Below are positions 3,399 to 63,974 of a DNA stretch of 64,000 nucleotides, in pieces (the first letter of the stretch is position 1; the number at the start of each line of letters is the position of its first letter). Under the pieces are notes generated by a model. That model was not told the DNA's origin and did no database searches. It was given only the letters and a program-made list of their open reading frames with translations. Source of the stretch: Dehalococcoidia bacterium (GTDB taxonomy: Bacteria > Chloroflexota > Dehalococcoidia > Lucifugimonadales > GCA-2712585); the NCBI GenBank assembly GCA_965221895.1, contig CBDCSX010000002.1:1595366-1659365 (forward strand), read 5' to 3'. Both the position numbers and the translations under genes were made by a program.

Positions 3399-5180
3399 TT
3401 AGACTATTACTTCCTGATACGGCACATGAATATCGGTGGCGCCGCTGAGAATCTCCATAATGCCCTCGGTAACGTGGTGGGGCATGAAAGGCTCTCCGTC
3501 GTACTTGCGCACGTGGCCATCCACGGAGAGGCCCGTCTCACTGCGCAAGTACCGGTAGAACTGGCCGGAGTAGTTGTTCTCGACCATGATGGTCTTCTTT
3601 GATTTGGAGAAGATTTCGACAATTTCGTCGCCCATCAAGGGGACTATCCACTTGATTGGCAGGTGGTTGGCAGTGACACCCCTCTCCGCCAATTGCGGGA
3701 TGGCCTCTTTAATGACGCCGTAGGTGGAACCCCAGCCGACGATGGTCACGTCGGCGTCTTCGGGGCCTTCCAGTTCCGGGGCGGGAACCAGTTTAGACAA
3801 TAGCTGGAACTTACGCGCCCGCTTCTCCACCATCTTGCGACGCTTGTGGGGATGGGTAAACTCGTCGCTGATGAGGATTGAATCCTCGTCATGCTCGTCG
3901 GTGGCCACCACGTGGGTGTAGCCTTCCAGACCAGGGAGCGCCCGGGGCGAAACGCCAGTCTCAGTGTTGAGATAGCGCTTGTAGCCGTTGGGGGCGGCGG
4001 GTTCGGTAATGATTTCGCCACGGTCTATGACGGGCTGCATGTTAAGGGTGTCGGGGTCGAAGCTGAACCGGCCCTCGCCAATGACCAGGTCGGAAATGAC
4101 GATGCCGGGGCACTGGGCCTTGTCCACCAGGTTGAAAAGCTCCGGCATGGTGTTAAAGGCGTCAAGGGCGTCTATGGGAGCAACTATAAATCGCTCGAAG
4201 TCGCCCTGGCTGGCGCCCAAAACCTGCCATAGGTCGCCTTGTTCCGACTTTGTGGGGACGCCGGTGGACGGTCCTGCGCGCATGACGTCGATAAAGACTA
4301 CGGGAATCTCCATCATGCCGGCGCTGCCTATCGCCTCCGTCATAAGTGCGAAGCCGCCGCCGGAGGTGGCGCACATGGCGCGGCAGCCGGTGTGGGCCGC
4401 ACCGATGGTCATGTTGGCCACGCCGATTTCGTCCTCGACCTGCCGCACCATTATGCCTAACATGCGGGCGTAGGCCGCCATCCAGTGAAGAACCCCTGTT
4501 GAGGGGCTCATTGGGTACGCTGCGTAGAACTTGACGCCGGCGGCCGCGCCGCCCATTGCGACAGCGTCGTTGCCCGCCCAGACTGCCAGGGGCTTCTCGC
4601 CCACGGGGGCGGGCGGGTCGTAGGGCGCGAAGTTTTCCACCGCGTACTCATAGCCGGCCCGGGCAAACTTCACGTTTTCGTCCACCACCGCCTGGCCATG
4701 ACGCGCGAACCGCAGGTTGAGGCTGTCTTCGAGGGTCTGGAAGTCAAGCCCCAGCATGTACATGATGGAGCCCACGGCCACGGTGTTCTGGATAAGCCGG
4801 TTCCTGCTGCCGCCTGTCAGGTGGGAGATGGGCAACGCGCAAATCTGGACGCCCTCCTGGGCATCGTTCACCTTAATGCGGTCGCCGTTGAAGACGATGC
4901 TGGAGCCCGGCCCCATGAGACCCACGTGCCGGTCGGCGGTGTCCTGGTTCAGACACAGTAGAAGGTCCAGCTTGTCTCCATGAGTCAGCACTTCCTCCTC
5001 CCCCACTCGCATGGTGAGGAAGATGTGGCCGCCACGAATGATGGACTGATAGGCGTTGTAGGTGTAGAGGTGAAGGCCGCGGCGCACAAAGACCCGGGCC
5101 AGAATGTCGCCCGGGGTGGCGATGCCCTGACCGGCCTCGCCGCCAATAGCCATGGCGAAATCGAACTTCCCTGAACTCAT
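3399..5180 (-). CDS. korA: 2-oxoacid:ferredoxin oxidoreductase, alpha subunit (2-oxoglutarate/pyruvate type)
   Basis: Length and conserved OFOR alpha domains (pyruvate-flavodoxin oxidoreductase N-terminal and transketolase-like). The start was set at MSSGKFDF, preceded by a GAAGGAG RBS. Confidence 0.85.
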   Translation of the reverse strand: MSSGKFDFAMAIGGEAGQGIATPGDILARVFVRRGLHLYTYNAYQSIIRGGHIFLTMRVGEEEVLTHGDKLDLLLCLNQDTADRHVGLMGPGSSIVFNGDRIKVNDAQEGVQICALPISHLTGGSRNRLIQNTVAVGSIMYMLGLDFQTLEDSLNLRFARHGQAVVDENVKFARAGYEYAVENFAPYDPPAPVGEKPLAVWAGNDAVAMGGAAAGVKFYAAYPMSPSTGVLHWMAAYARMLGIMVRQVEDEIGVANMTIGAAHTGCRAMCATSGGGFALMTEAIGSAGMMEIPVVFIDVMRAGPSTGVPTKSEQGDLWQVLGASQGDFERFIVAPIDALDAFNTMPELFNLVDKAQCPGIVISDLVIGEGRFSFDPDTLNMQPVIDRGEIITEPAAPNGYKRYLNTETGVSPRALPGLEGYTHVVATDEHDEDSILISDEFTHPHKRRKMVEKRARKFQLLSKLVPAPELEGPEDADVTIVGWGSTYGVIKEAIPQLAERGVTANHLPIKWIVPLMGDEIVEIFSKSKKTIMVENNYSGQFYRYLRSETGLSVDGHVRKYDGEPFMPHHVTEGIMEILSGATDIHVPYQEVIV

Positions 5181-5271
5181 TAGGCTGCTCCTTCTTACTT
5201 GGTGGGCCCTACGGCCTTGCGGCGACGGAACGGCGCAAGTTGCCGGCTCATATAGGGAAGGGCCCCGATTC

Positions 5272-5287
5272 TGTTGTACATACAACA
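5272..5287. promoter_or_regulatory. Candidate operator palindrome TGTTGTA-CA-TACAACA in the korAB upstream region
   Basis: 7-bp perfect inverted arms lying ~90 bp upstream of the korA start on the minus strand. Confidence 0.25.
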
Positions 5288-5560
5288 CTTCCGTCGGCGG
5301 CGCAAATAATAGAGGCGGGCCGGATTGGCCCCCCATTGAGCCGCAGTATATCTATTGTCAACAAGGAAGTATAGCGTTACCCGTTGCCGTAGGCAACCTT
5401 GAGAGATACTATAGCTTGGGAATCGGGCATTGGGCGACGGTGGTTGCCGCCTCATCCAACCCCAACCGATACTCACATATCTTAGATTCTTGGGAACAAT
5501 CAGCAAGGCTCGGATACTAACATTACAGTTCAGAATGCGCGAAAGTGAAAATAGACTGCG

Positions 5561-19425: not shown

Positions 19426-20637
19426 TTACGATATCTGATACTTGCCAATGGCGTTGAAATCTATCTGTACCCAAGCCTCTGCCCGCTTTTCAAAGACAAC
19501 CTTGATGAATCCCAATTCTCCCAATCTATTGAGTTCTCTTATGATGGTTCGGACAGTCACTTCTCGATAGGCGGCTCTCACGAAGGCAGATTCCAACGCC
19601 TCGTGTAGAGCGACTTTACGGGACGGACTCTCATCAAACGGGTCTTCCGGCTCCGTCTCATCCAAGAGAAATTGCAACAGTTGAACTTCCCTATCGTTCA
19701 ACAAACGACGTCGAGGGCTGACCTTTCTGTTGTGACTGGCCACCAGCATTTGCCTATACATTACCCTGTTTAGCTTGGTCTTGACGAAGTTGTTTATGCC
19801 CATAAGTTCTTCCAAGAACCCCTCTACACCAAACTGTATGAAGGCAGTCACGTTCATCTTGGGCGCCGTACGTCTGGCCTCATTCAGGCGAACCCTATAC
19901 CTGTCCGCGTTCCTGTAAAAGAAGTTGGACAACCCATAGAATCCGTGCACGTTGTACCCGTGTTGGAACAGTATTCCGGCCTCCAGTAGCCTGGAAACCC
20001 TGCCGTTGCCGTCACCAAAAGGATGAATGGTCACTAAGAAAAAGTGCGCCAGCAGGGCTTGAATAACCGGCATCTCAGATGGCAATCTTCCGGAGTTCAG
20101 GAAGGACACGAATTCTTCCATCATCCGGGGCAAGTCGTTGTGAGACGCGCCCCAATGAATCCCGCCGAGATCCGGTGCACCCACCCTAACGGGATTATTC
20201 CGCAGCGCGCCGGGCACGTTATCTTTCTCGTCCGAACCCTGGGTAAGCAGCCTATGCATCGTCAGGATGTCGCCCATGCTCACTGGCGACGAACCCGGGG
20301 CGAACCGGTCTTTGACCCAGTCCTGCCCTCTGGCAGCATTGGCTATCTGCGTTATCTCGCGTGACTTATCCGTTGGCGACACGGCCGCCTCCCGTTCGAT
20401 CCGCTCTATTTGCACCTGAACTTCGGTCTCCGACAGAGGGTTGCCTTCAATGGCCGTCGTCCCATGGACGGCCCGCACCTTATTCAACCTGTCCAGTTGC
20501 TTAACCCATTCTGGGGCTAGGACCAAGTGGCTCGCCGACTGTCTATGGGCCTCAATGCTAATCACCGTATTGAATAATGCGCTGCCCTCCAAGTAGTAAT
20601 CAAAGCCAAACCGTTCCCAGAAATTCTTCGAGTCCAA
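19426..20637 (-). CDS. Fic/DOC family protein (AMPylation-type) with a C-terminal winged-helix-like extension
   Basis: Fic motif 'HPFGDGNGRVSRLL'. The locus is lower in GC. Confidence 0.8.
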   Translation of the reverse strand: MDSKNFWERFGFDYYLEGSALFNTVISIEAHRQSASHLVLAPEWVKQLDRLNKVRAVHGTTAIEGNPLSETEVQVQIERIEREAAVSPTDKSREITQIANAARGQDWVKDRFAPGSSPVSMGDILTMHRLLTQGSDEKDNVPGALRNNPVRVGAPDLGGIHWGASHNDLPRMMEEFVSFLNSGRLPSEMPVIQALLAHFFLVTIHPFGDGNGRVSRLLEAGILFQHGYNVHGFYGLSNFFYRNADRYRVRLNEARRTAPKMNVTAFIQFGVEGFLEELMGINNFVKTKLNRVMYRQMLVASHNRKVSPRRRLLNDREVQLLQFLLDETEPEDPFDESPSRKVALHEALESAFVRAAYREVTVRTIIRELNRLGELGFIKVVFEKRAEAWVQIDFNAIGKYQIS

Positions 20638-41879: not shown

Positions 41880-42944
41880 TTGAACCGGGCGAATTTTCCT
41901 GCCTTGGCTCAGACCTTGCTTTCCCGCCCACAGCTTTTCGCGTCGGCCGCCCTGCTGGGCCTGCTTTTACTAACGTCAACGCCCCTGGCCTGCCACCGAG
42001 CCGACCCGTCGGAAGACCCGGGAAGCCTCGTCATCTACGCTGCGCGTGAGGAGCAGCTGGTCGGCCCCGTGGTGGAAAGATTTCGGGAGGAGACGGGAGT
42101 GCGGGTAAAGGTGAAGTACGGCGGCACGGCGCAGGTGGCGGCCACTCTCCTAGAAGAGGGCGACGCCAGCCCCGCCGACCTGTTCTGGACGCGCGATCCC
42201 GGAGGGCTGGGCGCCCTTTCCGGCAAGCTCAAGTCTCTGCCGTCGGACATTCTGGACTTAGTGCCCGACAGGGCCCGCTCTTCCGAAGGCCAATGGGTGG
42301 GCATCACTGCACGGGTGCGGGCGCTGGTCTACAATCCTGAGCGCGTTGACCCCCAGGAGCTTCCCCGCTCCCTTCGCGATCTGACGGAGGCACGCTGGAA
42401 GGATAGGGTGGGGTGGTCGCCTACAAGCGGGCCCACCCAGACCATGATCACCTTCATGCGCTACGCCTGGGGAGAGGAGGAGACCCGGCGCTGGCTTGCA
42501 GCCCTGGAGGAGAACGGGGCGGTCAAGTACGGCGGCCACACGTCGGTGGTGGCGGCAGTGCACCGGGGCGAGGTAGACGTGGGGTTGGTCAACCACTACT
42601 ACGTCCACCGGTTCAGGGAGGAGCACGGCCAGGACGCCGCCGTTGAGAATCACCACCTGCCGGAAAAGGGGCCGGGCAACCTGGCCATGATATCCGGCGC
42701 GGGCGTCCTGCGAACGGTGAAAAACGAGGCCAACGCCCACGCCTTCCTGCGGTATCTACTTTCGGCCCACGCTCAGGCTTACTTCACCCATCAGACCTTC
42801 GAGTATCCAATGGTAGAGGCTGTGCCCATCCACCCCGACCTCACACCTCTGGCCGAAATCAACACCCCCGAGGCAAACATGGACGACTTGGCTGACTTGC
42901 AGGCGACGCTGGGGCTGCTGCGGGAGTTGGGGGTTGTGCCGTAG
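41880..42944 (+). CDS. Fe(3+) ABC transporter substrate-binding protein (FbpA/AfuA-like)
   Basis: Signal peptide and SBP_bac_1/11-type 'VIYAAREEQLVGPVVERFREETGVRVKV'. Confidence 0.65.
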   Translation: MNRANFPALAQTLLSRPQLFASAALLGLLLLTSTPLACHRADPSEDPGSLVIYAAREEQLVGPVVERFREETGVRVKVKYGGTAQVAATLLEEGDASPADLFWTRDPGGLGALSGKLKSLPSDILDLVPDRARSSEGQWVGITARVRALVYNPERVDPQELPRSLRDLTEARWKDRVGWSPTSGPTQTMITFMRYAWGEEETRRWLAALEENGAVKYGGHTSVVAAVHRGEVDVGLVNHYYVHRFREEHGQDAAVENHHLPEKGPGNLAMISGAGVLRTVKNEANAHAFLRYLLSAHAQAYFTHQTFEYPMVEAVPIHPDLTPLAEINTPEANMDDLADLQATLGLLRELGVVP

Positions 42945-43069
42945 GGGGGCGTACTGAATAGGGGAGAGTAGAGAGGGGAGTTCCTTCAGGCCTCGGACGC
43001 GATGTGTCAATGCCAAAGCCACAGACGGGTGAAAATCGCCGCGTTCGGCCCTTCGGCCTTAGAGTGTCG

Positions 43070-43282
43070 CTACCCTATCAATTGCAGAATGACGTTTAGG
43101 CCAGCCAAAACCAATCCAACGACGCTGATGGTAGATACCACCAACACCTTTAACGCTTTAATGTCCCCACGAACTTCGGCCAAGTCTGCTTTCGTTGCGT
43201 AGTGCTGACGATATTCGTCTCGCAACGACGACAGTTCTTCCCTAAGCTCACTTCGGGTAATGGGCTGTTCCGCCATTGCCAT
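43070..43282 (-). CDS. Small coiled-coil protein with a C-terminal TM helix (XhlA/DUF1640-like), downstream of the AbiTii-like gene
   Basis: 'SELREELSSLRDEYRQHYATKADLAEVRGDIKALKVLVVSTISVVGLVLAGLNVILQLIG'. The start was trimmed to MAMAEQ. Confidence 0.45.
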   Translation of the reverse strand: MAMAEQPITRSELREELSSLRDEYRQHYATKADLAEVRGDIKALKVLVVSTISVVGLVLAGLNVILQLIG

Positions 43283-43436
43283 TGCTATCCTCCGATACTC
43301 TCTGTACCAGAGCCTAACAAAACCGATGTGCGACGGCAAGCAGCGGTTGGCACCGGTGTTCTCTCAATTCCTCGGTTGAGTGGGCTGAGTCTCGAGTACT
43401 CCACATACTATTCGCCATGCGGGACCGTTTATGCTA

Positions 43437-44339
43437 TCACCCTCCGTAATAGCTCCTAATTCCATCTATTAACACCTTTGGAGCCGTTGCGAGGCTGATC
43501 TTCCATGCTCCAGATGCCGCCTTTTCTATCATTTTCCCTACCCAAGCCTGAACTTTCGGTCCAAATTGACCTTGAGAAGGATCCTGCTCAGTAGCAACTA
43601 TTCTTTTGAGTTCACTCAGGTCATTCTCATCGACCTTATGGCCAGCCAAGTGATTTACAAGCGATGCAATGTCACCCTTGCGAATGGGATTAGCTTGTTG
43701 TTGTACGTTTTCTCCGCTGGCTACGATGTTGTGGTCGCCATGGATATTGATGTTGAAAAGGTTCCTCACCGTCTCTTGCTTCACTTCGCCACTCTTCAGG
43801 TTTTCCGACGTGACATTGTTCTCCTGCAGGCCAAGTATGAAATCTAACAGCTTGTTCTTCACCTTATCCAGAATTCCAGCGATGTGTGAGGGGAGAATCG
43901 GCTGGTGTGCATTTACTAAAATCATGCCATCTGTCATTTGTGTTGCATCTCTAGCCAACATCACGAATTCTACAGGCCATTCCCTCTTATATTTCCCGTC
44001 CCCCTGGTTTAGCATAGCTTCAAGCTCTCCCACACCCTGGGAAAGGACCAATTTCTCAGCGAATTCCTTTACCGGGCTAGGTAGACTTTGCGTAGGAAGT
44101 GGTACCTTCCTTGCCATCGTCTGGAAGGAGCCACTGAAAGTGCCAAGATTGAGAGGGCGAGAACCTCTGTAGTTAGGCACTTTTTTCAAATCTGGGTAGC
44201 CATTGAGTTCAGAGTCAACCCATTCCCGAAATTCAGGTAACCCCAAATCGTTGGCGAGTATCTTCGCCTTCCTTAGGGTATTCGAGACACTCGCTGATTC
44301 ATCAATCAAGTCAGAGCGAATATTGTCGATTAGAGCCAT
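43437..44339 (-). CDS. AbiTii-like abortive-infection domain protein; the islet is lower in GC
   Basis: N-terminal 'LIDNIRSDLIDESASVSNTLRKAKILANDLGLPEFREWVDSELNGY' resembles the AbiTii N-terminal domain. Confidence 0.5.
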   Translation of the reverse strand: MALIDNIRSDLIDESASVSNTLRKAKILANDLGLPEFREWVDSELNGYPDLKKVPNYRGSRPLNLGTFSGSFQTMARKVPLPTQSLPSPVKEFAEKLVLSQGVGELEAMLNQGDGKYKREWPVEFVMLARDATQMTDGMILVNAHQPILPSHIAGILDKVKNKLLDFILGLQENNVTSENLKSGEVKQETVRNLFNINIHGDHNIVASGENVQQQANPIRKGDIASLVNHLAGHKVDENDLSELKRIVATEQDPSQGQFGPKVQAWVGKMIEKAASGAWKISLATAPKVLIDGIRSYYGG

Positions 44340-44526
44340 TTCTTTCCCAACCTACCTACGTTACTACTGTTCTTAATTTACCATAGTCCCCTATTCCAAT
44401 TGCCGCTTGGTGTGGCCTGTGCTACATTGCAACGTAAGCGCGACGAGATTCTTCGCTTCACTCAGAATGACATAAGTCGCGCTCGGAATGACAGTTGTCA
44501 CGCCATCCCAGCCCAAGGAGTTGAAG

Positions 44527-46278
44527 ATGACTAACGCTTACTCGGTTAAGTTTGAGCCGCATATCCCCCTGACCCTCGGAGACGGGACCATGTCCTACGT
44601 GGACGTGTTCCGGCCCGACGCTCCCGGTCGTTTTCCCGCCCTTCTCCAGCGCACGCCCTACGACAAGGGAGGGCCCGGCAGCCGCTCCGGACCCGTCGAC
44701 GCCATTCGGGGGGCCATGAACGGCTACGCCGTCGTCATCCAGGACGTTCGCGGTCGGCATAGTTCGGACGGCGAGTTCTACACCTTCGTCAACGAATCCG
44801 ACGACGGATATCACTCCGTGGAGTGGGTAGCGTCCCAGCCCTGGTGCAACGGCAAGGTGGGCATGTACGGCGTGTCCTACGTGGGCGCAACCCAGTGGCT
44901 CGCGGCCAAGGCAAAGCCCCCATCTCTGACGGCCATCGTCCCCGGCGTCACCGCCTCCGATTACCACGAAGGTTGGGCCTGGCAGGGCGGCGCCTTTGAG
45001 CTTGGCTTCAACCTTTCCTGGGCCGTCGGCCCCCTGACCGCCGCCAACTGGGGCAACCTCTCCAAACGTCTGGGCCTCCCCCAGCAGCAGCTGAACGACG
45101 TCATTCACGCCAAGGACAATCTGACCGACGGATTCCTGCACATGCCCTTGGAGGAAGTGCCTGACCTGAAGGGCGGCCTGGCTCCCTACTACTACGACTG
45201 GCTGGCCCATCCGGAGTTCGACGACTACTGGAAGAGCGTCTGCATCGCCGAGTCCCACTCCGACATCGACGTGCCCGCGCTCAACTGGGGCGGGTGGTAC
45301 GACGTGTTCCTCGGCGGCACAATCGACAACTACGTGGGGATGCGCCGACGAGGGGCGACGGAGGCCGCCCGCAAGGGTCAGCGCCTGCTCATCGGACCGT
45401 GGATTCACGGCAACTCGCCCGTTGACGTTTCGGGCCAGTTCCACTTCGGCACCCGCGCATCTTCTGCAGTCCTCGACCTGCCCGGGATCATCCTCCGCTA
45501 CTACGACCACTGGCTCAAGGGAGAGGACAACGGAGTGGCTGACGAAAAGCCGGTGCGCATCTTCGTCATGGGAGAAAACAGGTGGCGGATGGAGGATTCG
45601 TGGCCCCTGGAGCGGGCGGTGACCACCAACTTCTACCTGCATAGCGGCGGGAGGGCTAACACCCTGAACGGCGACGGGTCGCTGAGCGTGGACGCGCCGG
45701 GCAACGAGCCGCCGGACGTGTACGCCTACAACCCCCTGGACCCGGCCCCGACTCGAGGCGGCGGCCTGTGCTGCGACCCCGCATTCATGATGTCGGGCGC
45801 CTACGACCAGCGGCCTATCGAGGCTCGCCCCGACGTTCTGGTGTACAGCACGCCGGAACTTGAACGAGACACGGAAGTCACCGGCCCCGTGACGGTCACT
45901 CTGTACGCCGCCAGCTCCGCCGTGGACACGGACTTCACCGGCAAGCTGGTGGACGTTGAGCCCTGCGGCTGCGCCCGAAATCTAACCGACGGCATCATAC
46001 GCGCCAGATATCGTAAGCCGCGACAGCCTGCGAGCCTCATCCAACCCGGTGAAGTCTACGAGTACGCCATCGACGTCTGGGCCACCAGCAACGTGTTCAA
46101 GAAGGGACACCGGATTCGGTTGGAGATTTCCAGCAGCAACTTCCCCCGGTTCGACCGGAACGCCAACACCGGCGGGGACATAGGCGCGGGGACGCGGCTG
46201 GTTCCGGCTTTGCAGACAGTGTTCCACGACGGGGAGTATCCGTCGCACGTGAGCCTGCCGCTGGTGCCGAGGGGGTGA
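44527..46278 (+). CDS. CocE/NonD family hydrolase (S15 X-Pro dipeptidyl-peptidase fold)
   Basis: 'ALLQRTPYDKG', 'GVSYVGATQW' (GxSxxG), and a C-terminal beta-sandwich domain. Confidence 0.8.
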   Translation: MTNAYSVKFEPHIPLTLGDGTMSYVDVFRPDAPGRFPALLQRTPYDKGGPGSRSGPVDAIRGAMNGYAVVIQDVRGRHSSDGEFYTFVNESDDGYHSVEWVASQPWCNGKVGMYGVSYVGATQWLAAKAKPPSLTAIVPGVTASDYHEGWAWQGGAFELGFNLSWAVGPLTAANWGNLSKRLGLPQQQLNDVIHAKDNLTDGFLHMPLEEVPDLKGGLAPYYYDWLAHPEFDDYWKSVCIAESHSDIDVPALNWGGWYDVFLGGTIDNYVGMRRRGATEAARKGQRLLIGPWIHGNSPVDVSGQFHFGTRASSAVLDLPGIILRYYDHWLKGEDNGVADEKPVRIFVMGENRWRMEDSWPLERAVTTNFYLHSGGRANTLNGDGSLSVDAPGNEPPDVYAYNPLDPAPTRGGGLCCDPAFMMSGAYDQRPIEARPDVLVYSTPELERDTEVTGPVTVTLYAASSAVDTDFTGKLVDVEPCGCARNLTDGIIRARYRKPRQPASLIQPGEVYEYAIDVWATSNVFKKGHRIRLEISSSNFPRFDRNANTGGDIGAGTRLVPALQTVFHDGEYPSHVSLPLVPRG

Positions 46279-46319: not shown

Positions 46320-47576
46320 GTGCGAAACTACCGAGCTATGAGCAGCGACTTCATAAAGCGGAAATCTCTCGTATTTGTCCTCGCGGCGGTGGTGGTGGGG
46401 CTTGTGGCTTTTGTGGGGGCGTGCGTGCTTGTGTATGAAACCGGGTGGTTGAGCAACGAGGAATACGACTGGAGGGAGGAAGTGACAGGCTCGCGCCCTT
46501 TTGTTCCCCCTCAGTGGTCTTCTGACGGCACGAAGATGATAATAGATTGGTGGGAGATCCCCTACCTAGTTGACACTGGTCCTGACCCACCAATGCTCAA
46601 GCGAATAGTCGCAGGAAATTACCAGGAACGCTTCTATCCCCGCATTTCTCCAGACGGATTGCGGATAGTCTTCTCAACGGAGCGACACGCGAGTTACGGA
46701 CTTATGAGGGAGATTGGAGTCTCCAACCTTGACGGGTCTGAATATCGACGACTAACCAGAAATAGATATTTTCAATCAGCCCCGGCGTGGTCTCCCGACG
46801 GCTCCCACATCGCCTTGTTCTCCAAACCTCAAAGTGACGAGGAAACCTACTACAGATTTCAAAGCTTATATGTGATTTCAGCCAGAGGCTCCAGCCCACA
46901 GAAACTTGTTGAGTGGGTTCGGGCTTTCGGCCCTCCTGTCTGGTCTCCCGATGGCCGCAAGATTGCATTATTGAGCCGCCCAAGAGCAACATCGGGTGAC
47001 GGCATTATCTACGTTATCGACCGAGACGGATCTAACGCGATCAAAATTCCTGGGGCTTCCAGCCAACCAGCCTGGTCTCCCGACGGAAGCTCTATAGCTT
47101 TTCTGCGTGGAGAAAAACGCGAATCCCTACATGTCGTCAACCCGGACGGTTCCGGGTTGCGGAAGCTAGTCGATTTGGACCCCGACACTTTACTAAGACG
47201 GAACTGGTATCCGGAACTTTATTTGTCTTGGTCTCCGGACGGTTCGGAGATCTTACTGCGGGACTACCCTTTCATTTTGGTCAAAGCCGATGGTACGGAT
47301 TACCCTGAGGGAGAATCACCATACGCCGTATTTGCCGATTCGCAAGATTGGCGCAGAGCCTACGCCTCCTGGTCTCCGGACGGCTCAAGAATTGCCATCA
47401 CTGTAGAGCGAATGGGTGAATTCGGGCCCATTGCTGGCGATGCCGTTCTCCTCACCATGGCGCGAGACGGGTCAGACAAGCGGGTGCTGGTAAGGCACGG
47501 CCATGAATACAGACCCTATGCCGTTCCCAATGAGCCGTGGGAGGGAGAAGGGGAATGGGTGTGGCATTCTCCGTAG
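46320..47576 (+). CDS. TolB-like (PD40/WD40-like beta-propeller) lipoprotein, paralog 1
   Basis: Lipobox 'AFVGAC' and repeated 'WSPDGS.IAF' blocks. Ends '...VPNEPWEGEGEWVWHSP'. Confidence 0.7.
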   Translation: MRNYRAMSSDFIKRKSLVFVLAAVVVGLVAFVGACVLVYETGWLSNEEYDWREEVTGSRPFVPPQWSSDGTKMIIDWWEIPYLVDTGPDPPMLKRIVAGNYQERFYPRISPDGLRIVFSTERHASYGLMREIGVSNLDGSEYRRLTRNRYFQSAPAWSPDGSHIALFSKPQSDEETYYRFQSLYVISARGSSPQKLVEWVRAFGPPVWSPDGRKIALLSRPRATSGDGIIYVIDRDGSNAIKIPGASSQPAWSPDGSSIAFLRGEKRESLHVVNPDGSGLRKLVDLDPDTLLRRNWYPELYLSWSPDGSEILLRDYPFILVKADGTDYPEGESPYAVFADSQDWRRAYASWSPDGSRIAITVERMGEFGPIAGDAVLLTMARDGSDKRVLVRHGHEYRPYAVPNEPWEGEGEWVWHSP

Positions 47577-47585
47577 GGGGGAATC

Positions 47586-47709
47586 AGCCCCGGTTCGACC
47601 GAAACGCCAACACGGGAGGGGGGACGCGGCTGGTTCTCGCGCTGCAGACCGTGTTCCACGACGCGGAATACCCCTCCCACGTAAGCCTTCCCCTGGTGCC
47701 TAGGGACTA
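47586..47709 (+). pseudogene. Orphan copy of the cocE 3' end (corresponding to 46143-46278), with an in-frame 12-nt deletion and a TAA stop in the homologous position
   Basis: Would encode 'PRFDRNANTGGGTRLVLALQTVFHDAEYPSHVSLPLVPRD*', compared with cocE 'PRFDRNANTGGDIGAGTRLVPALQTVFHDGEYPSHVSLPLVPRG*'. Most of the nucleotide differences are synonymous. Confidence 0.75.
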
Positions 47710-47798
47710 ACTGAATACATACATCCGCAAGTCATCGGCTTTTGACTTGCCGTTTCGCAACGCTTGTGCGAAACTAACCATCGATAGGCGGTGGTTTC

Positions 47799-49016
47799 GT
47801 GCAACGGAAATACATTGTAGTCGTCCTGGCGTCGGTTATGGTGGGGCTTGCGGCTTTTGTGGGAGCGTGCGCGCTTGTTTATGAAACCGGGTGGTTGAGC
47901 AGTGACGATGATGTAGGATACCCTGTTGGATCTCCTCCCCTCCTGCCTCCCATATGGTCTCCTGACGGCACAAAGATAGTATTGGACTGGTGGTCAGGGT
48001 CGTACCTGGTTGAAGCAAGATACGATGGCGTAGAACTCACTAGAATCTACGTGGAAAATGAATGGGAGAGGATTTATCCCCATATCTCCCCAGACGGCTC
48101 ACGGATAGCCTTCTCAACAGGGCGGAACTCGTTTGATGTATATGACTCTGATATTCGGCTTACCGACTTAGACGGGGGCAATTATCGATATCTGACCAGA
48201 AGCAGGGGTAATCAATTTGGTCAAAGGTGGGCACCCGACGGCTCAAGAATCGCCTTTATCTCATGTCTTCGCGTTCGCAAAGATGCGGTCGAGAGGACCT
48301 GTAGCCTATACAGCATAGCTGCCAACGGTTCCGGGCCCCGCAAGCTTGTTGACTCGGTGCAAGCTACCGGGGGCATCGCCTGGTCTCCTGATGGAAGGAC
48401 GATCGCATTCTTCGGCCATGAACGGGACCAGTTAGGCGAATGGCCGAAGGCCCATTTCATATACATCGTAGACGGCGATGGTTCAAATTTGGCCAGGCTT
48501 GCAGAAGCTTCTAGTCTACCGACCTGGTCCCCTGACGGAAGCTCTATTGCTTTTCTGCAGGGAGACACCAGAGACGCATTGTTCGTCGTCGAGCCGGACG
48601 GCACCGGGTTGCGGAAAATTGCCGTTCTAGATTCCATACCAGAACGGTCTTGGTTCCCAAGAACATACTTGTCGTGGTCTCCAAATGGTTCGGAGATTCT
48701 GCTGCAGGATTATCCCTTCATCTTGGTCAAGGCGGATGGCACGGAATACCCGGAGGGGAAAGCGCCTTATGCGGTTTTTGTCGACTCAGAAGATTGGGAA
48801 CATGCCTACGCGTCCTGGGCTCCGGACGGTTCAAGGATTGCCATCACTGTCCAGCAGGCCGGCGGAAACGACCCAGATGACAGAGAAGCCTTTCTCCTCA
48901 CCATGGCGCGAGACGGGTCAGACAAGCGTGCTATGGTAAGGATCGACGAACGTGTCTATGCCGTGCCCAATGAGCCGTGGGAGGGAGGGGGCGAGTGGGT
49001 GTGGCATTCGCCGTAG
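47799..49016 (+). CDS. TolB-like (PD40) lipoprotein, paralog 2
   Basis: ~60-65% identical to paralog 1, with N- and C-termini nearly identical. Confidence 0.7.
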   Translation: MQRKYIVVVLASVMVGLAAFVGACALVYETGWLSSDDDVGYPVGSPPLLPPIWSPDGTKIVLDWWSGSYLVEARYDGVELTRIYVENEWERIYPHISPDGSRIAFSTGRNSFDVYDSDIRLTDLDGGNYRYLTRSRGNQFGQRWAPDGSRIAFISCLRVRKDAVERTCSLYSIAANGSGPRKLVDSVQATGGIAWSPDGRTIAFFGHERDQLGEWPKAHFIYIVDGDGSNLARLAEASSLPTWSPDGSSIAFLQGDTRDALFVVEPDGTGLRKIAVLDSIPERSWFPRTYLSWSPNGSEILLQDYPFILVKADGTEYPEGKAPYAVFVDSEDWEHAYASWAPDGSRIAITVQQAGGNDPDDREAFLLTMARDGSDKRAMVRIDERVYAVPNEPWEGGGEWVWHSP

Positions 49017-49020
49017 GGGG

Positions 49021-49105
49021 AATCAACCACGCTTCGAGGTGAACGCCGACATGGGCGGGAACATGGGCGGGGAGACGCGGCTGGTACGAACGCTTGCAGT
49101 CCTGG
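49021..49105 (+). pseudogene. A second, more diverged orphan fragment of a cocE-like 3' end
   Basis: 'cgcttcgaggtgaacgccgacatgggcgggaacatgggcggggagacgcggctggtacgaacgcttgcag' is ~75% identical to cocE 46148-46225 and retains the 12 nt that the 47586-47709 copy lacks. Confidence 0.55.
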
Positions 49106-59297: not shown

Positions 59298-59454
59298 CGC
59301 ATCACCATCCCCCCGTAAACCATCCCCCGAAGGCGGCAAACCCCCTCAGCTTTTCCCTAAGGGGGCGGGCTGGGAGCTGCAAGTCATCCTGTGCCCACCG
59401 ACCCTAGGGCGCCCAGCTTCGGCGAGATTCTTCGCTACGCTCAGGATGGCATTC

Positions 59455-62470: not shown

Positions 62471-63193
62471 TCATGACATCAACATCTGCCGAAAACAACG
62501 ATTAACCATTTGGTCGCACGAAGGACATTCTATTATGCATTCGGCAATCATTTCTGGTCCACTCACCAGCAAATTCAATCCTTTCCCTAACAAGCACGCA
62601 TCGCGTTTAGCTATCCACGCTTCGTATTCGCTCCTGCATTTTAGGTTTCCACACTTCACATTGGCCTTGAGCGTTGCGCTTCTGAACTTGTTGGCAACTC
62701 TGTAGAACTCACTTGAGCCAGAAACTCGCGCAGCAGATGCAACTAGGCCCTCGTACTGTTCCCAACCTAGTTCTGAAGTGAAGTCAAAGAGAAAGAGTAC
62801 ATTCAACATAGGAACAGATACTTCTATCCCCTGCCTGATGTCTTGAATGGCCATTACATACTTCAGGTTGCTAGGGTCGTTTCCCAACCCAGCGAAGATT
62901 CCAACCTCGAAGCCAATCCACGCCTGCGTCCAGTATTTTCCTGATACTTCGTCGCCCAAGAGGACAAAGAGCATCTCACTTTCAGCTATCTTGTCCGCCA
63001 GGACCTTGGCTGGAGGAGCCTTTATACGGTGCTCAGGGCTGAGTTCGTATAGGAAGGGTGCAACACCAGCCTTGCAACAGGCACACTTTAGTTTCTTGGC
63101 TATCTCTTTGTCATTCGCTGAATGTGAAACAAATGCCTGCTTCATGTGTTGGCCATTACAAACTCTACATTCGAAGCCTTGAGACTGTGACAC
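62471..63193 (-). CDS. TIR-like domain protein with N- and C-terminal Cys-rich (zinc-ribbon-like) segments, in a lower-GC islet
   Basis: 'KQAFVSHSANDKEIAKKL...APFLYE...EMLFVLLGDEVSGKYWTQAWIGFEVG' fits a TIR/TIR-like (DUF1863) pattern. C-x2-C pairs at both ends. Confidence 0.4.
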   Translation of the reverse strand: MSQSQGFECRVCNGQHMKQAFVSHSANDKEIAKKLKCACCKAGVAPFLYELSPEHRIKAPPAKVLADKIAESEMLFVLLGDEVSGKYWTQAWIGFEVGIFAGLGNDPSNLKYVMAIQDIRQGIEVSVPMLNVLFLFDFTSELGWEQYEGLVASAARVSGSSEFYRVANKFRSATLKANVKCGNLKCRSEYEAWIAKRDACLLGKGLNLLVSGPEMIAECIIECPSCDQMVNRCFRQMLMS

Positions 63194-63263
63194 TATTCAT
63201 CCTCCTCTGGGTACCCATTGAGGCGCTGGTTTAGTATTTCAAAGGGCGACATCCGAATAGCGC

Positions 63264-63974
63264 CTAAGGCACAATTTCACATATGAATTCGATTGCATCT
63301 TCGACTCTTGTCTTAATTGCAATTAGTTGAGGTAGCGAGAATCTTCCCGCTGGGCCATGCGCACCAGAGTTAAGGTCTTTGAACAAGACAGACAGATTCT
63401 TGATGTTTGCCTCGGTAAAATCCTCAAGGGCTTCATTGCCTAGTCCGCGGCGATCCAAACAATAATGTATTTTGGCACGTCGAGTAGGCATACCACGCTC
63501 AGTAACTTGACAGTCTGGAAACCATGACAACACCTCGCCGTCGGGAGCTCCGCAATTGAGAATATCCGCGAGGATTTCCCTTGAGCTTGTACAAAAATGC
63601 CGGGCAGCATCCGGGTTATGAGGGTTCAGAGCAAATAGGGCACCGGACCAGCGATCCTGTATGTCTACAGGATAACCCTTTAGCGATTCCGTTAACTTCG
63701 TACTAGTAAGTTCTTCATCTCCCAACTGTACTTGGCTGTTGTATCCAAGCAACGTGTTGAGCACATTCGCGCTGTTGGCAGTGTCTCGTTCAGCGAGGTC
63801 TGAGAGAAATGGATTCGCATTACTATGGTCTAGTCGTTCATACGCAGAGTTGAGAGCAATAACAGACAAATGCGACGAGGTATAGCTGATGGGGATTGTT
63901 CGAGAAGAAAGACTCTTTAGGGCGGATCGTAGTCGGGATCTGTTGGCCCTGACGCGTGCATTGTGTGCCCGCAC
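63264..63974 (-). CDS. Hypothetical protein upstream of the TIR-like gene on the same strand. It may extend beyond the window edge.
   Basis: ORF only; lower GC. Confidence 0.3.
   Translation of the reverse strand: MRAHNARVRANRSRLRSALKSLSSRTIPISYTSSHLSVIALNSAYERLDHSNANPFLSDLAERDTANSANVLNTLLGYNSQVQLGDEELTSTKLTESLKGYPVDIQDRWSGALFALNPHNPDAARHFCTSSREILADILNCGAPDGEVLSWFPDCQVTERGMPTRRAKIHYCLDRRGLGNEALEDFTEANIKNLSVLFKDLNSGAHGPAGRFSLPQLIAIKTRVEDAIEFICEIVP

Follow-up and report, generated by a model that had tools for sequence, protein, structure and literature searches.

Does a short GC-poor islet in the chromosome of a Dehalococcoidia bacterium hold a two-gene phage-defence module, or a single defence gene with an independent neighbour? 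The initial annotation of the window (the whole 64-kb stretch of DNA analysed here) had proposed the former, pairing an AbiTii-like protein with a small membrane protein likened to XhlA and DUF1640. AbiT ranks among the classic Abi systems of lactococci; it was reportedly described by Bouchard et al. in 2002 as the combination of AbiTi and AbiTii in L. lactis, and phage mutations that escape it fall in the major capsid protein and in early phage genes. To our knowledge, its mechanism is still not established after more than 20 years.

Gene calls and base composition of the islet

The features of the islet and its left border are as follows (coordinates are those of the window; the evidence is given in brackets):

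43070..43282, minus strand: small gene, encoding a 70-residue, tail-anchored, predicted helical membrane protein (66 homologs, TM segment, model)
43289..43339, minus strand: promoter-like element of the small gene, TTGCCG-17 nt-TAGGCT, with a GGAGG Shine-Dalgarno (SD) sequence (sequence reading, conservation)
43340..44395, minus strand: AbiTii cassette of about 1055 bp, a presence/absence segment (blastn of slots)
43437..44339, minus strand: AbiTii gene, encoding a two-part soluble protein without a TM segment (ORF, Pfam and PADLOC matches, homologs, AF2)
43440..43784, minus strand: C-terminal module, residues 186-300 (phrog_16090, cluster survey, no known family)
43695..43754, minus strand: G/N-rich motif NINIHGDHNIVASGENVQQQ, residues 196-215 (invariant residues, comparison of C-modules)
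43773..44333, minus strand: AbiTii domain, residues 3-189 (PF18864, invariant E36/E44, AF2, mosaic blocks)
44396..44430, minus strand: left-edge element GCAATGTAGCACAG...CAAGCGGCAATTGG, conserved and lying in the region upstream of cocE (kept in L013, L014 and L001)
44447..44502, minus strand: dispersed repeat GTCATTCTGAGYGAAGCGAAGAATC and an adjoining half-copy, between cocE and the cassette (repeat search)

The AbiTii gene starts with ATG in the ORF list and encodes 300 residues; a spacer of 154 nt separates it from the small gene on the same strand. In that list the small gene runs from 43070 to 43339 with a TTG start, giving the 89 residues of the initial annotation. We re-called its product as 70 residues (MAMAEQ...), because its 66 homologs measure 58-84 residues, with 70 frequent, and because a GGAGG SD sequence at 43289-43293 precedes an ATG at 43282. 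The gene and its C-terminal TM segment were correctly recognized, but not its length.

The low GC content noted at the outset is borne out: GC across 43000-44400 is 0.455-0.53, as compared with 0.62-0.67 in the flanks, and the islet, at 0.483, ranks in the bottom 1% among all 1270-bp windows taken across the 64-kb stretch, which is itself compositionally mosaic and has further low-GC patches. GC3 is 0.498 for the AbiTii gene and 0.563 for the small gene, against 0.80 for the aminopeptidase N and Fe-SBP genes and 0.84 for cocE. At each Chloroflexota locus the AbiTii gene lies 8-17 GC points under its flanks; the deficit of the small-gene family is mild (5-10 points) and present even at loci without variable neighbours.

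The 300-residue protein is a member of the AbiTii-domain family

The motif on which the AbiTii assignment had been based, LRKAKILANDLGLPEFREWVDSELNGY, is found at residues 22-48. Pfam PF18864 matches residues 3-189, over profile positions 2-182 of 189, with E=1.7e-37 and 129.9 bits (cutoff, 27.6), and the PADLOC AbiTii model (PDLC02334) matches with E=3.7e-37, both far beyond chance. The protein is therefore a true member of the family, as had been suggested. An exact-protein look-up gave no record, and its 235 homologs are about 300 residues long; all those listed carry the AbiTii domain and match over the full length. E36 and E44 are invariant among 37 sequences, and in the AF2 model of the whole protein (pLDDT 82) the domain is predicted at a pLDDT of about 90 to combine helices with strands at 65-69, 75-80, 118-120 and 140-147; the invariant glutamates and the predicted alpha+beta fold fit the published definition of the domain (PMC3710099). 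The protein is soluble by prediction, with no TM segment (maximum KD19, 1.12).

AbiTii alleles are recombination mosaics, in which residues 48-160, approximately, are swapped as a block. Thus, P0002 shares 96-100% identity with the window protein over all but residues 48-160; within that block the identity drops to 54-60%, and the sequence equals that of P0009. In L001, the AbiTii gene is 73% identical against a backbone identity of 94% and has an in-frame TAG; the small gene of that contig is intact. Block mosaicism, high divergence relative to the backbone, the stop codon in L001 and the low GC content are signatures of gene flux and of an arms race.

The C-terminal part is a portable module

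Residues 186-300 form a module, undescribed so far, of about 115 residues, in which a G/N-rich motif is followed by a predicted four-helix bundle. The motif (residues 196-215) has a 7-residue xNxVxxG periodicity, and its residues G201, N204, G209 and Q214 are invariant; in the AF2 monomer model, residues 203-216 have a pLDDT below 50. The same motif class is common to all C-module proteins, one of which gave a weak match to a beta-roll (LbR_Ice_bind), and the bundle ends with the pattern ...W[IV]GKM..KA..G.WK......YYG. The module was found in 1087 representative clusters, at the C-terminus in all of them, and is fused to AbiTii in 83 of 150. Its other carriers are a STAND/AAA NTPase (P0280), proteins with unrelated N-terminal domains and short, possibly stand-alone proteins; for one of the latter, P0239, encoded on a 1.5-kb contig, the homology search returned only itself.

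No Pfam, PADLOC or PDB family covers residues 186-300, and no relatives emerged from PDB sequence-profile searches, whether with the C-module or with the family as a whole; phrog_16090, a PHROG of unknown function, matches the module at 4e-6. Since a set of 30 diverse C-modules gave no match to HEPN or to any other Pfam family, the module is not a recognizable RNase. In residues 186-300 no His is invariant or nearly so, and the Rx4-6H motif is missing; as conserved catalytic-type residues are absent from the module, it is most likely non-enzymatic. By analogy with other AbiTii proteins, in which effector domains hold this place, the module would have an output role. More speculatively, and on balance we doubt it, prokaryotic immune proteins could have in this module a novel, portable output domain, which self-assembles on infection into a toxic or membrane-active oligomer; the xNxVxxG motif may stack in a beta-roll or amyloid-like manner. 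If so, a single output domain would be common to AbiTii sensors, to one STAND NTPase or more and to a number of unrelated N-terminal domains, besides seemingly occurring by itself.

The small protein is a possible remote relative of CCDC90-like/DUF1640 proteins

The C-terminal helix of the small protein is strongly hydrophobic (Kyte-Doolittle 2.35, residues 47-65), and the protein is all-helical in its model (helices 10-27 and 31-69; pLDDT 83); it terminates in the TM helix (...NVILQLIG), with no charged tail. The motif EQPITRSELREEL...HYATKADLAEVRGDI and the TM segment are conserved across its 66 homologs. The profile of the CCDC90-like/DUF1640 family, PF07798, is matched by 10 of 48 relatives at E<=0.01 (best E=1.1e-6), and precomputed PF07798 matches are on record for P0155 and P0158; the window protein itself has no Pfam match at E<=1. 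For the window protein, the proposed likeness to the CCDC90-like/DUF1640 family is supported remotely and by transitivity, through these relatives. For bacterial DUF1640 proteins we know of no function. None of the 48 family members matches XhlA (PF10779), and no variant of the slot contains an endolysin, so there is no lysis context; the description of the product as XhlA- or holin-like is not supported. What the window protein shares with CCDC90-like/DUF1640 and XhlA proteins is an N-terminal charged helix and a single C-terminal TM helix.

Neither the small gene nor the other ORFs of the neighbourhood have a PADLOC match. The small protein belongs to a multi-copy family, with paralogs located amid ordinary metabolic genes, and the gene occurs without AbiTii in L013-L016 and L021-L029. 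A promoter-like TTGCCA-18 nt-TAAACT/TAAGCT followed by GGAGG is kept in both L013 and L014, irrespective of the upstream sequence; the case for this promoter is one of conservation, since a generic promoter/terminator consensus scan returned no match. Because the spacer between the two genes contains no terminator or terminator-like hairpin, co-transcription by read-through could occur. Rfam gave no match in 42800-44700, and the intergenic folds are no better than those of shuffled sequences. By these comparisons, the small gene is an independent neighbour of AbiTii rather than its partner, and is probably transcribed separately, from a candidate promoter of its own. A weaker lead is that small tail-anchored proteins with EQPITRSELREEL...HYATKADL may recur at two or more unrelated loci, each time bordering a variable defence slot.

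The islet occupies a defence hotspot

In related genomes the slot is bordered by cocE and by the SBP/aminopeptidase N genes, which are 75-97% identical, and its edges, as mapped by blastn, are fixed. The AbiTii and small genes are present together in the window, L001, L017, L018, L019, L031 and L032, and with a truncated small gene in L030; every one of these co-occurrences represents the same orthologous cocE/Fe-SBP slot in close relatives. AbiTii occurs unaccompanied by the small gene in L010 and L020, and the reverse is true of L013; in L014 and L015 the small gene goes with AIPR, and L016, a short contig, shows the small gene alone next to the SBP gene. In L030, an opposite-strand methyltransferase/DUF6997 cassette splits AbiTii from the truncated small gene. 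Further variants of the cargo include AbiTii with an N6_N4 methyltransferase/DUF6997 cassette (which stands beside the small gene or in its place), a SAM methyltransferase, BrnT/BrnA and a nearly empty slot. In blastn comparisons, positions 132-1187 of the window's slot give way to 70 bp in L013, and L014 has in their place 1919 bp that encode AIPR and a 69-residue protein. Many of the metagenomic contigs compared are of low coverage (3-4x) and have frameshifts; in L019, a 3x contig, what looked like four unknown genes on the upstream side of AbiTii turned out to be frameshifted pieces of cocE and were dropped.

The left-edge element is 82-90% identical in L013 and L014, both devoid of AbiTii, and is also kept in L001; L010 retains just its first 15 nt or so. 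The dispersed repeat has a second copy at 59426-59450 and is also found upstream of the AbiTii orthologs of L001 and L010. The window has no tRNAs, the flanks have no significant repeats and the slot has no integrase or mobility gene; the islet thus lacks the marks of a classical genomic island or integrative element (integrase, tRNA target, direct repeats). It is instead a defence hotspot, with conserved core flanks and alternative, defence-enriched cargo. As relatives carry defence-type genes in this variable slot, it is plausible that the islet serves in defence and that genes have moved in and out of the slot in the past. Of the horizontally acquired two-gene module that had been envisaged, the setting in a variable defence slot stands and the two-gene unit does not (see below).

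AbiTii is a single-gene unit in other contexts

Nine orthologs of the AbiTii gene lie elsewhere (L002-L009 and L011); the small gene is absent from eight of the nine loci and no neighbour is common to them, L008 being uninformative in this respect as it stops at a contig edge. AbiTii loci of unrelated contexts have no common ORF besides the AbiTii gene itself. RefSeq homologs come from E. coli (WP_115800947.1 and WP_045341327.1) and from plasmids of Klebsiella, Aeromonas, Vibrio and Ralstonia; those from plasmids and E. coli have the same full-length architecture, unrelated neighbours and, in all examined, no small gene. Homologs are frequent on conjugative or mobilizable plasmids, beside partition or replication genes; the neighbours are a type II R-M system and a GIY-YIG protein in E. 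coli, and an AAA ATPase and helicase pair on an IncFII plasmid. DUF6650 was considered as a family-wide partner and discarded, because the equivalent position in Shewanella is occupied by an unrelated gene. Relatives of either protein were absent from 50,697 phage records, IMG/VR viral contigs and BFVD, and the literature on the AbiTii plus C-module family contained nothing beyond the definition of the domain. AbiTii is, then, a single-gene unit.

Alternative explanations for the locus

As a two-gene module, AbiTii would be a sensor and the small protein a tail-anchored, membrane-disrupting effector, the two genes being possibly co-transcribed. They do share a strand, the 154-nt spacer shows no terminator-like hairpin, the GC content of each falls below that of the flanks, the pair is found in at least seven related contigs, and lactococcal AbiT is itself a two-gene system. 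However, co-occurrence is confined to one orthologous slot, and the pairing fails once synteny is discounted: equally related genomes show all four combinations of presence and absence, the L030 genes are separated by another cassette that accompanies a truncated small gene, and the small gene is missing at eight of nine orthologs in other contexts and at all plasmid and E. coli homologs examined. Moreover, the small gene holds its own promoter-like element and SD sequence where AbiTii is absent, is intact in L001 despite the stop codon in AbiTii, has no PADLOC match and owes its GC deficit of 5-10 points to a property of its family. The distribution already largely refutes the two-gene module, which we regard as improbable. 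Even more so, to the point of being barely credible, is the view that a degraded prophage or the remnant of a lysis cassette makes up the islet, with an XhlA-like hemolysin or holin as the small protein. The small protein has the shape of XhlA (N-terminal helix and C-terminal TM segment) and the C-module matches phrog_16090, but no member of the family matches XhlA, no endolysin or other phage gene occupies the slot in any genome, relatives are missing from the phage records, IMG/VR and BFVD, the protein ends with its TM helix and has no charged tail, and its paralogs reside among ordinary metabolic genes.

A single gene could also serve a non-immune function, as a selfish or addiction element or as a protein with a regulatory or scaffold role in mobile DNA; low GC content and patchy distribution would then reflect mobility rather than defence. 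The subfamily has no known phenotype, its literature is restricted to the domain definition, the C-module has no catalytic signatures, and homologs are carried by conjugative or mobilizable plasmids near partition and replication genes. Against this, the company of the gene is of the defence type (AIPR, methyltransferase/DUF6997 and BrnT/BrnA in the slot; R-M, GIY-YIG, and AAA ATPase with helicase elsewhere), the putative sensor region shows the block mosaicism typical of immune genes, and the single characterized member of the domain family is an Abi protein; we consider a non-immune function unlikely, although less so than a two-gene module. The reading we favour, and hold to be reasonably probable, is that the islet encodes a single-polypeptide AbiTii-type abortive-infection defence protein on a GC-poor cassette of about 1 kb in a hotspot, and that the small gene is not required. 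The N-terminal AbiTii domain would recognize a phage component or a cue of infection, and the signal would release or oligomerize the C-terminal module, with its short, beta-prone motif and its helix bundle; the latter, in the place taken by HEPN RNases in other AbiTii proteins, would provide the output, likely by oligomerization, target binding or membrane perturbation, and halt the infected cell or the phage. Judged from sequence, the AbiTii plus C-module subfamily is a candidate for defence activity.

Comparison with known AbiTii systems

The AbiT system of L. lactis needs two proteins, of which AbiTi (127 residues) is a predicted endoribonuclease and AbiTii (213 residues) has essentially no C-terminal extension (PMC13064643). 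The window protein shares with it the AbiTii domain, matched significantly by the profile over the whole of its roughly 185 residues, and a GC-poor, horizontally distributed gene found among other defence genes. It differs in having a conserved 115-residue C-module, in being encoded by a chromosomal gene of a Chloroflexota host, and in the absence of an AbiTi-like or otherwise conserved partner, as compared by description; the sole adjoining small gene codes for the 70-residue TM protein, which is dispensable by its distribution. The sole experimentally characterized AbiTii member, that of L. lactis, depends on AbiTi, which has no counterpart here. Outside Lactococcus, the commonest form of AbiTii is probably the one-gene protein. 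Closer in layout are the AbiTii-HEPN fusions of the c2405 and Ymh families (Anantharaman et al., 2013; PMC3710099), which likewise join an N-terminal AbiTii domain to a C-terminal helical output domain in one polypeptide; unlike them, the C-module described here has no conserved His, Rx4-6H motif or HEPN match, and places a G/N-rich, heptad-like motif before a four-helix bundle.

The RefSeq AbiTii proteins and the window protein are 25-30% identical across 96-100% of the length, C-module included; the former too are encoded by single genes, set among changing neighbours in defence islands or in the accessory regions of plasmids. Their sequences are very distant, however, their hosts belong to another phylum, and the enterobacterial copies carry a convergent DUF6650-like gene for which the islet has no equivalent. 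The C-module is thus widespread, with more than 1000 representative clusters ranging from Chloroflexota to plasmids of Klebsiella and E. coli and including a STAND NTPase. The case also cautions annotators that GC-poor, same-strand neighbours in a hotspot need not form one system. Since homologs exist in E. coli and Klebsiella, the family is directly testable, and both a function for a widespread "hypothetical protein" and an account of signalling by AbiTii sensors could follow from such homologs.

Two ORFs in a GC-poor islet

The islet next to cocE carries two ORFs, both on the minus strand:

43437-44339, minus strand: AbiTii gene, 300 aa, ATG start
43070-43282, minus strand: small gene, 70 aa, delimited by homolog lengths and the SD sequence

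The ORF pair and the GC dip of the initial annotation were both confirmed. GC is 0.455-0.53 over 43000-44400 against 0.62-0.67 in both flanks, and the islet value, 0.483, falls in the lowest 1% of all same-size windows of the 64-kb window, which has several other low-GC patches and is a composition mosaic overall. GC3 is 0.498 for the AbiTii gene and 0.563 for the small gene, and 0.80-0.84 for aminopeptidase N, Fe-SBP and cocE. The small gene had initially been read as 89 aa with a TTG start at 43339; this length is to be corrected to 70 aa, because its homologs (n=66) are 58-84 aa long, many of them 70 aa, and start MAMAEQPITR..., and because GGAGG lies 6 nt 5' of the ATG at 43282.

The AbiTii domain of the 300-aa protein

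Residues 3-189 match Pfam PF18864 (AbiTii) with 129.9 bits (E=1.7e-37; cutoff 27.6) and the protein matches the PADLOC AbiTii model at 3.7e-37; NCBIfam has no model for it. These profiles make it a genuine AbiTii-domain protein, as first proposed. In an AlphaFold model (pLDDT 82), residues 1-200 form a confident alpha+beta domain, and E36 and E44 are invariant among 37 aligned family members. Anantharaman et al. defined the domain, which in many bacteria is found with C-terminal HEPN RNase domains fused to it (PMC3710099); the HEPN motif of these proteins is absent from the window protein, which is therefore not an AbiTii-HEPN fusion. The prototype, AbiT of L. lactis, stops phage DNA replication, is escaped by mutations in the major capsid protein and early genes, and requires AbiTi, now a predicted endoribonuclease (PMC13064643). 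The window gene shares the domain family but has no partner, and thus is not AbiT in the lactococcal sense. The subfamily is large and already designated 'AbiTii domain-containing protein' in RefSeq; a literature search on AbiTii found no characterisation of it. The main gains of the present analysis are that it refutes the two-gene model, defines a hotspot and delineates a C-terminal module (residues 186-300; C-module).

A variable slot and the two-gene model

The window comes from a Dehalococcoidia bacterium. In the closest reference genome, OZ250180.1 (locus L001), cocE and aminopeptidase N are 94% identical to those of the window. The backbone of cocE and Fe-SBP/aminopeptidase N is conserved in the clade, and the content between them is variable.

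Contents of the slot between cocE and Fe-SBP/aminopeptidase N in the window and in comparison loci (L numbers) from other genomes
Window, L017, L018, L019, L031, L032: AbiTii and small gene
L001: AbiTii with in-frame TAG, and intact small gene
L010: AbiTii only
L020: AbiTii and opposite-strand N6_N4 methyltransferase/DUF6997, without small gene
L030: AbiTii and a truncated small gene, separated by an insertion of the N6_N4 methyltransferase/DUF6997 cassette seen in L020
L013: small gene only, and SAM methyltransferase
L014/L015: AIPR (Abi-type protein), 69-aa gene and small gene
L016 (short contig): only small gene and SBP visible

The edges of the exchanged cassette are fixed, with a 35-nt element (44396-44430) on one side and the small-gene promoter region on the other; between these edges the window has 1055 bp, L013 has 70 bp and L014 has 1919 bp. 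In L014, a direct repeat of about 75-95 nt of the SBP-gene 3' end (4826-4920 and 5266-5340) brackets the small gene and looks like an insertion or unequal-recombination footprint. Just past aminopeptidase N, some related genomes have a BrnT/BrnA toxin-antitoxin pair (L013, 9917-10222; L031, 5589-6084), which is absent from the equivalent place in the window.

The initial annotation took the two genes for a candidate phage-defence module. They do stand together in several slots, but each also occurs alone there, and AbiTii orthologs elsewhere (L002-L009, L011; 45-61% identity) lack the small gene, none being found in these loci, of which L008 ends at a contig edge and is uninformative. These neighbourhoods have no neighbour in common; besides one marginal match of 24% identity, matches between the loci come down to shadow ORFs within the AbiTii gene itself. 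Nor is the composition of the small gene evidence of co-acquisition, since its GC is 5-10 points lower everywhere, stable contexts included; the AbiTii gene lies 8-17 points under its flanks in 12/12 Chloroflexota loci examined. By gene content and synteny, the two-gene module is largely refuted.

The complete two-part architecture of AbiTii domain and C-module is found on 204 plasmid records (85 at >=80% coverage), from Klebsiella, Aeromonas, Vibrio, Ralstonia, E. coli and others, and in 10/5426 complete E. coli genomes, with differing neighbours and annotated as 'hypothetical' or 'AbiTii domain-containing protein'. E. coli copies from two settings, an IncFII plasmid and a chromosomal island that also holds type II R-M, GIY-YIG and IS3, each have a convergent 158-aa DUF6650-like gene on their 3' side (L033, 5023-5499; L036, 8023-8499); the IncFII copy has an AAA ATPase and helicase pair upstream.

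The small membrane protein

By its model (pLDDT 83), which has helices at 10-27 and 31-69, and by the strong hydrophobicity of its final ~25 residues (KD 2.35), the small protein is a tail-anchored helical membrane protein. An N-terminal signature, EQPITRSELREEL...HYATKADLAEVRGDI, is very conserved across the family. The window protein matches no Pfam family; PF07798 (CCDC90-like, formerly DUF1640) is matched by 10/48 relatives (best E=1.1e-6), so that the label 'DUF1640-like' is remotely right, and XhlA by 0/48, which leaves the XhlA/holin label without basis. A promoter-like element (TTGCC[A/G], 17-18 nt, TA[A/G][A/G]CT) and GGAGG are kept before the small gene whatever lies upstream. Its paralogs in L026-L029 are surrounded by metabolic genes; another, P0174 (L021-L025), edges a further variable slot, flanked by NIPSNAP and panB, which is empty or contains an unknown 325-aa gene or a TIR (CAP12-PCTIR) and RNase H cassette. 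Upstream, a PIN-containing pair is found in some of L021-L025, and variable defence cargo adjoins 2/3 small-protein family loci examined.

Mosaic and decayed AbiTii alleles

Between L001 and the window, AbiTii is 73% identical and the backbone 94%, AbiTii thus diverging much faster. Outside residues 48-160, the homolog P0002 is 96-100% identical to the window protein (residues 1-47 and 161-300); inside them identity drops to 54-60%, and this block is 100% identical to that of P0009. P0001 has the converse pattern at its N-terminus. On these alignments, AbiTii alleles are block mosaics, and intragenic recombination exchanging the beta-rich middle of the domain is consistent with a recognition surface that diversifies. 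Some copies look decayed: a TAG in frame near codon 84 (L001, 6001-6903), a split by a ~235-bp insertion (L011, 6001-7153) and a truncation after residue ~249 (L007, 6001-6744).

A portable C-terminal module

No Pfam, PADLOC or NCBIfam model covers residues 186-300, whose sole match is phrog_16090, of unknown function. The first element of the C-module is a highly conserved motif, NINIHGDHNIVASGENVQQQ, with a 7-residue periodicity (xNxVxxG) and invariant G201, N204, G209 and Q214; residues 203-216 are predicted to be disordered in the monomer model (pLDDT<50), and one C-module member weakly matches a beta-roll repeat family. The second is a four-helix bundle (residues 224-298) ending ...FGPKVQAWVGKMIEKAASGAWK...YYGG. 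Searched alone against 1.84 billion representative proteins, the C-module matched 1087 clusters (289 at E<=1e-10), at the C-terminal end in all matches listed. Among the best 150 of the 1087 clusters, it follows a full AbiTii domain in 83 (about 300 aa), an N-truncated one in 29 (mostly fragments) and unrelated N-termini in 16, including P0280, a 676-aa STAND/AAA NTPase, and the unknown domains of P0199, P0312 and P0326; the other 22 are short proteins, partly fragments, of which P0239, P0266, P0302 and P0324 (109-127 aa) appear to be true stand-alone C-modules. These architectures indicate that the C-module is portable, and its constant C-terminal place behind varied sensor/NTPase domains would be typical of conflict-system effector or adaptor domains.

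AbiTii family membership, single-gene distribution, hotspot location, the portable C-module and mosaic alleles are what the analysis shows. With moderate confidence, we read the gene as a candidate single-gene defence system of AbiTii type, located in a defence hotspot; this reading retains from the initial annotation the AbiTii domain, the low GC and the defence context, and discards the two-gene module and the holin. The protein would be of the abortive-infection type, its AbiTii domain sensing a phage cue and its C-module providing the output. Non-enzymatic action is favoured because the output domain has no catalytic signature; more speculatively, the G/N-rich motif might drive oligomerisation, whereupon the helical bundle could bind a target or perturb the membrane.

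Other features of the window

Further low-GC patches and repeats were noted:

19426-20637, minus strand: 403-aa Fic/DOC protein in a low-GC patch (PADLOC SoFic single-gene defence model, E=4.9e-44; Pfam Fic, 1.3e-14)
46320-49104, plus strand: two tandem PD40/Tricorn-like paralogs (46320-47576 and 47799-49016; GC3 0.57)
62471-63974, minus strand: low-GC window end (GC 0.486)
63264-63974: predicted pPIWI/Argonaute-associated nuclease (Pfam pP_pnuc_1, 7.8e-36; PADLOC Aga_Nuclease, 7e-8)
44447-44502 and 59426-59450: dispersed repeat GTCATTCTGAGYGAAGCGAAGAATC

The predicted nuclease adjoins a 240-aa protein whose TIR-like (ThsB) match is weak (4e-5), and the genes of 62471-63974 may be a short pAgo-type system running off the window. 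Behind each PD40/Tricorn-like paralog, the last ~45 cocE codons are repeated (47582-47704, 84% aa identity; 49021-49104, 50%), which suggests insertion/duplication events that copied the cocE 3' end. The dispersed repeat, translated as 'VILSEAKNL', makes gene calls such as P0008 spuriously long at the N-terminus, and also lies upstream of AbiTii in L001 and L010.
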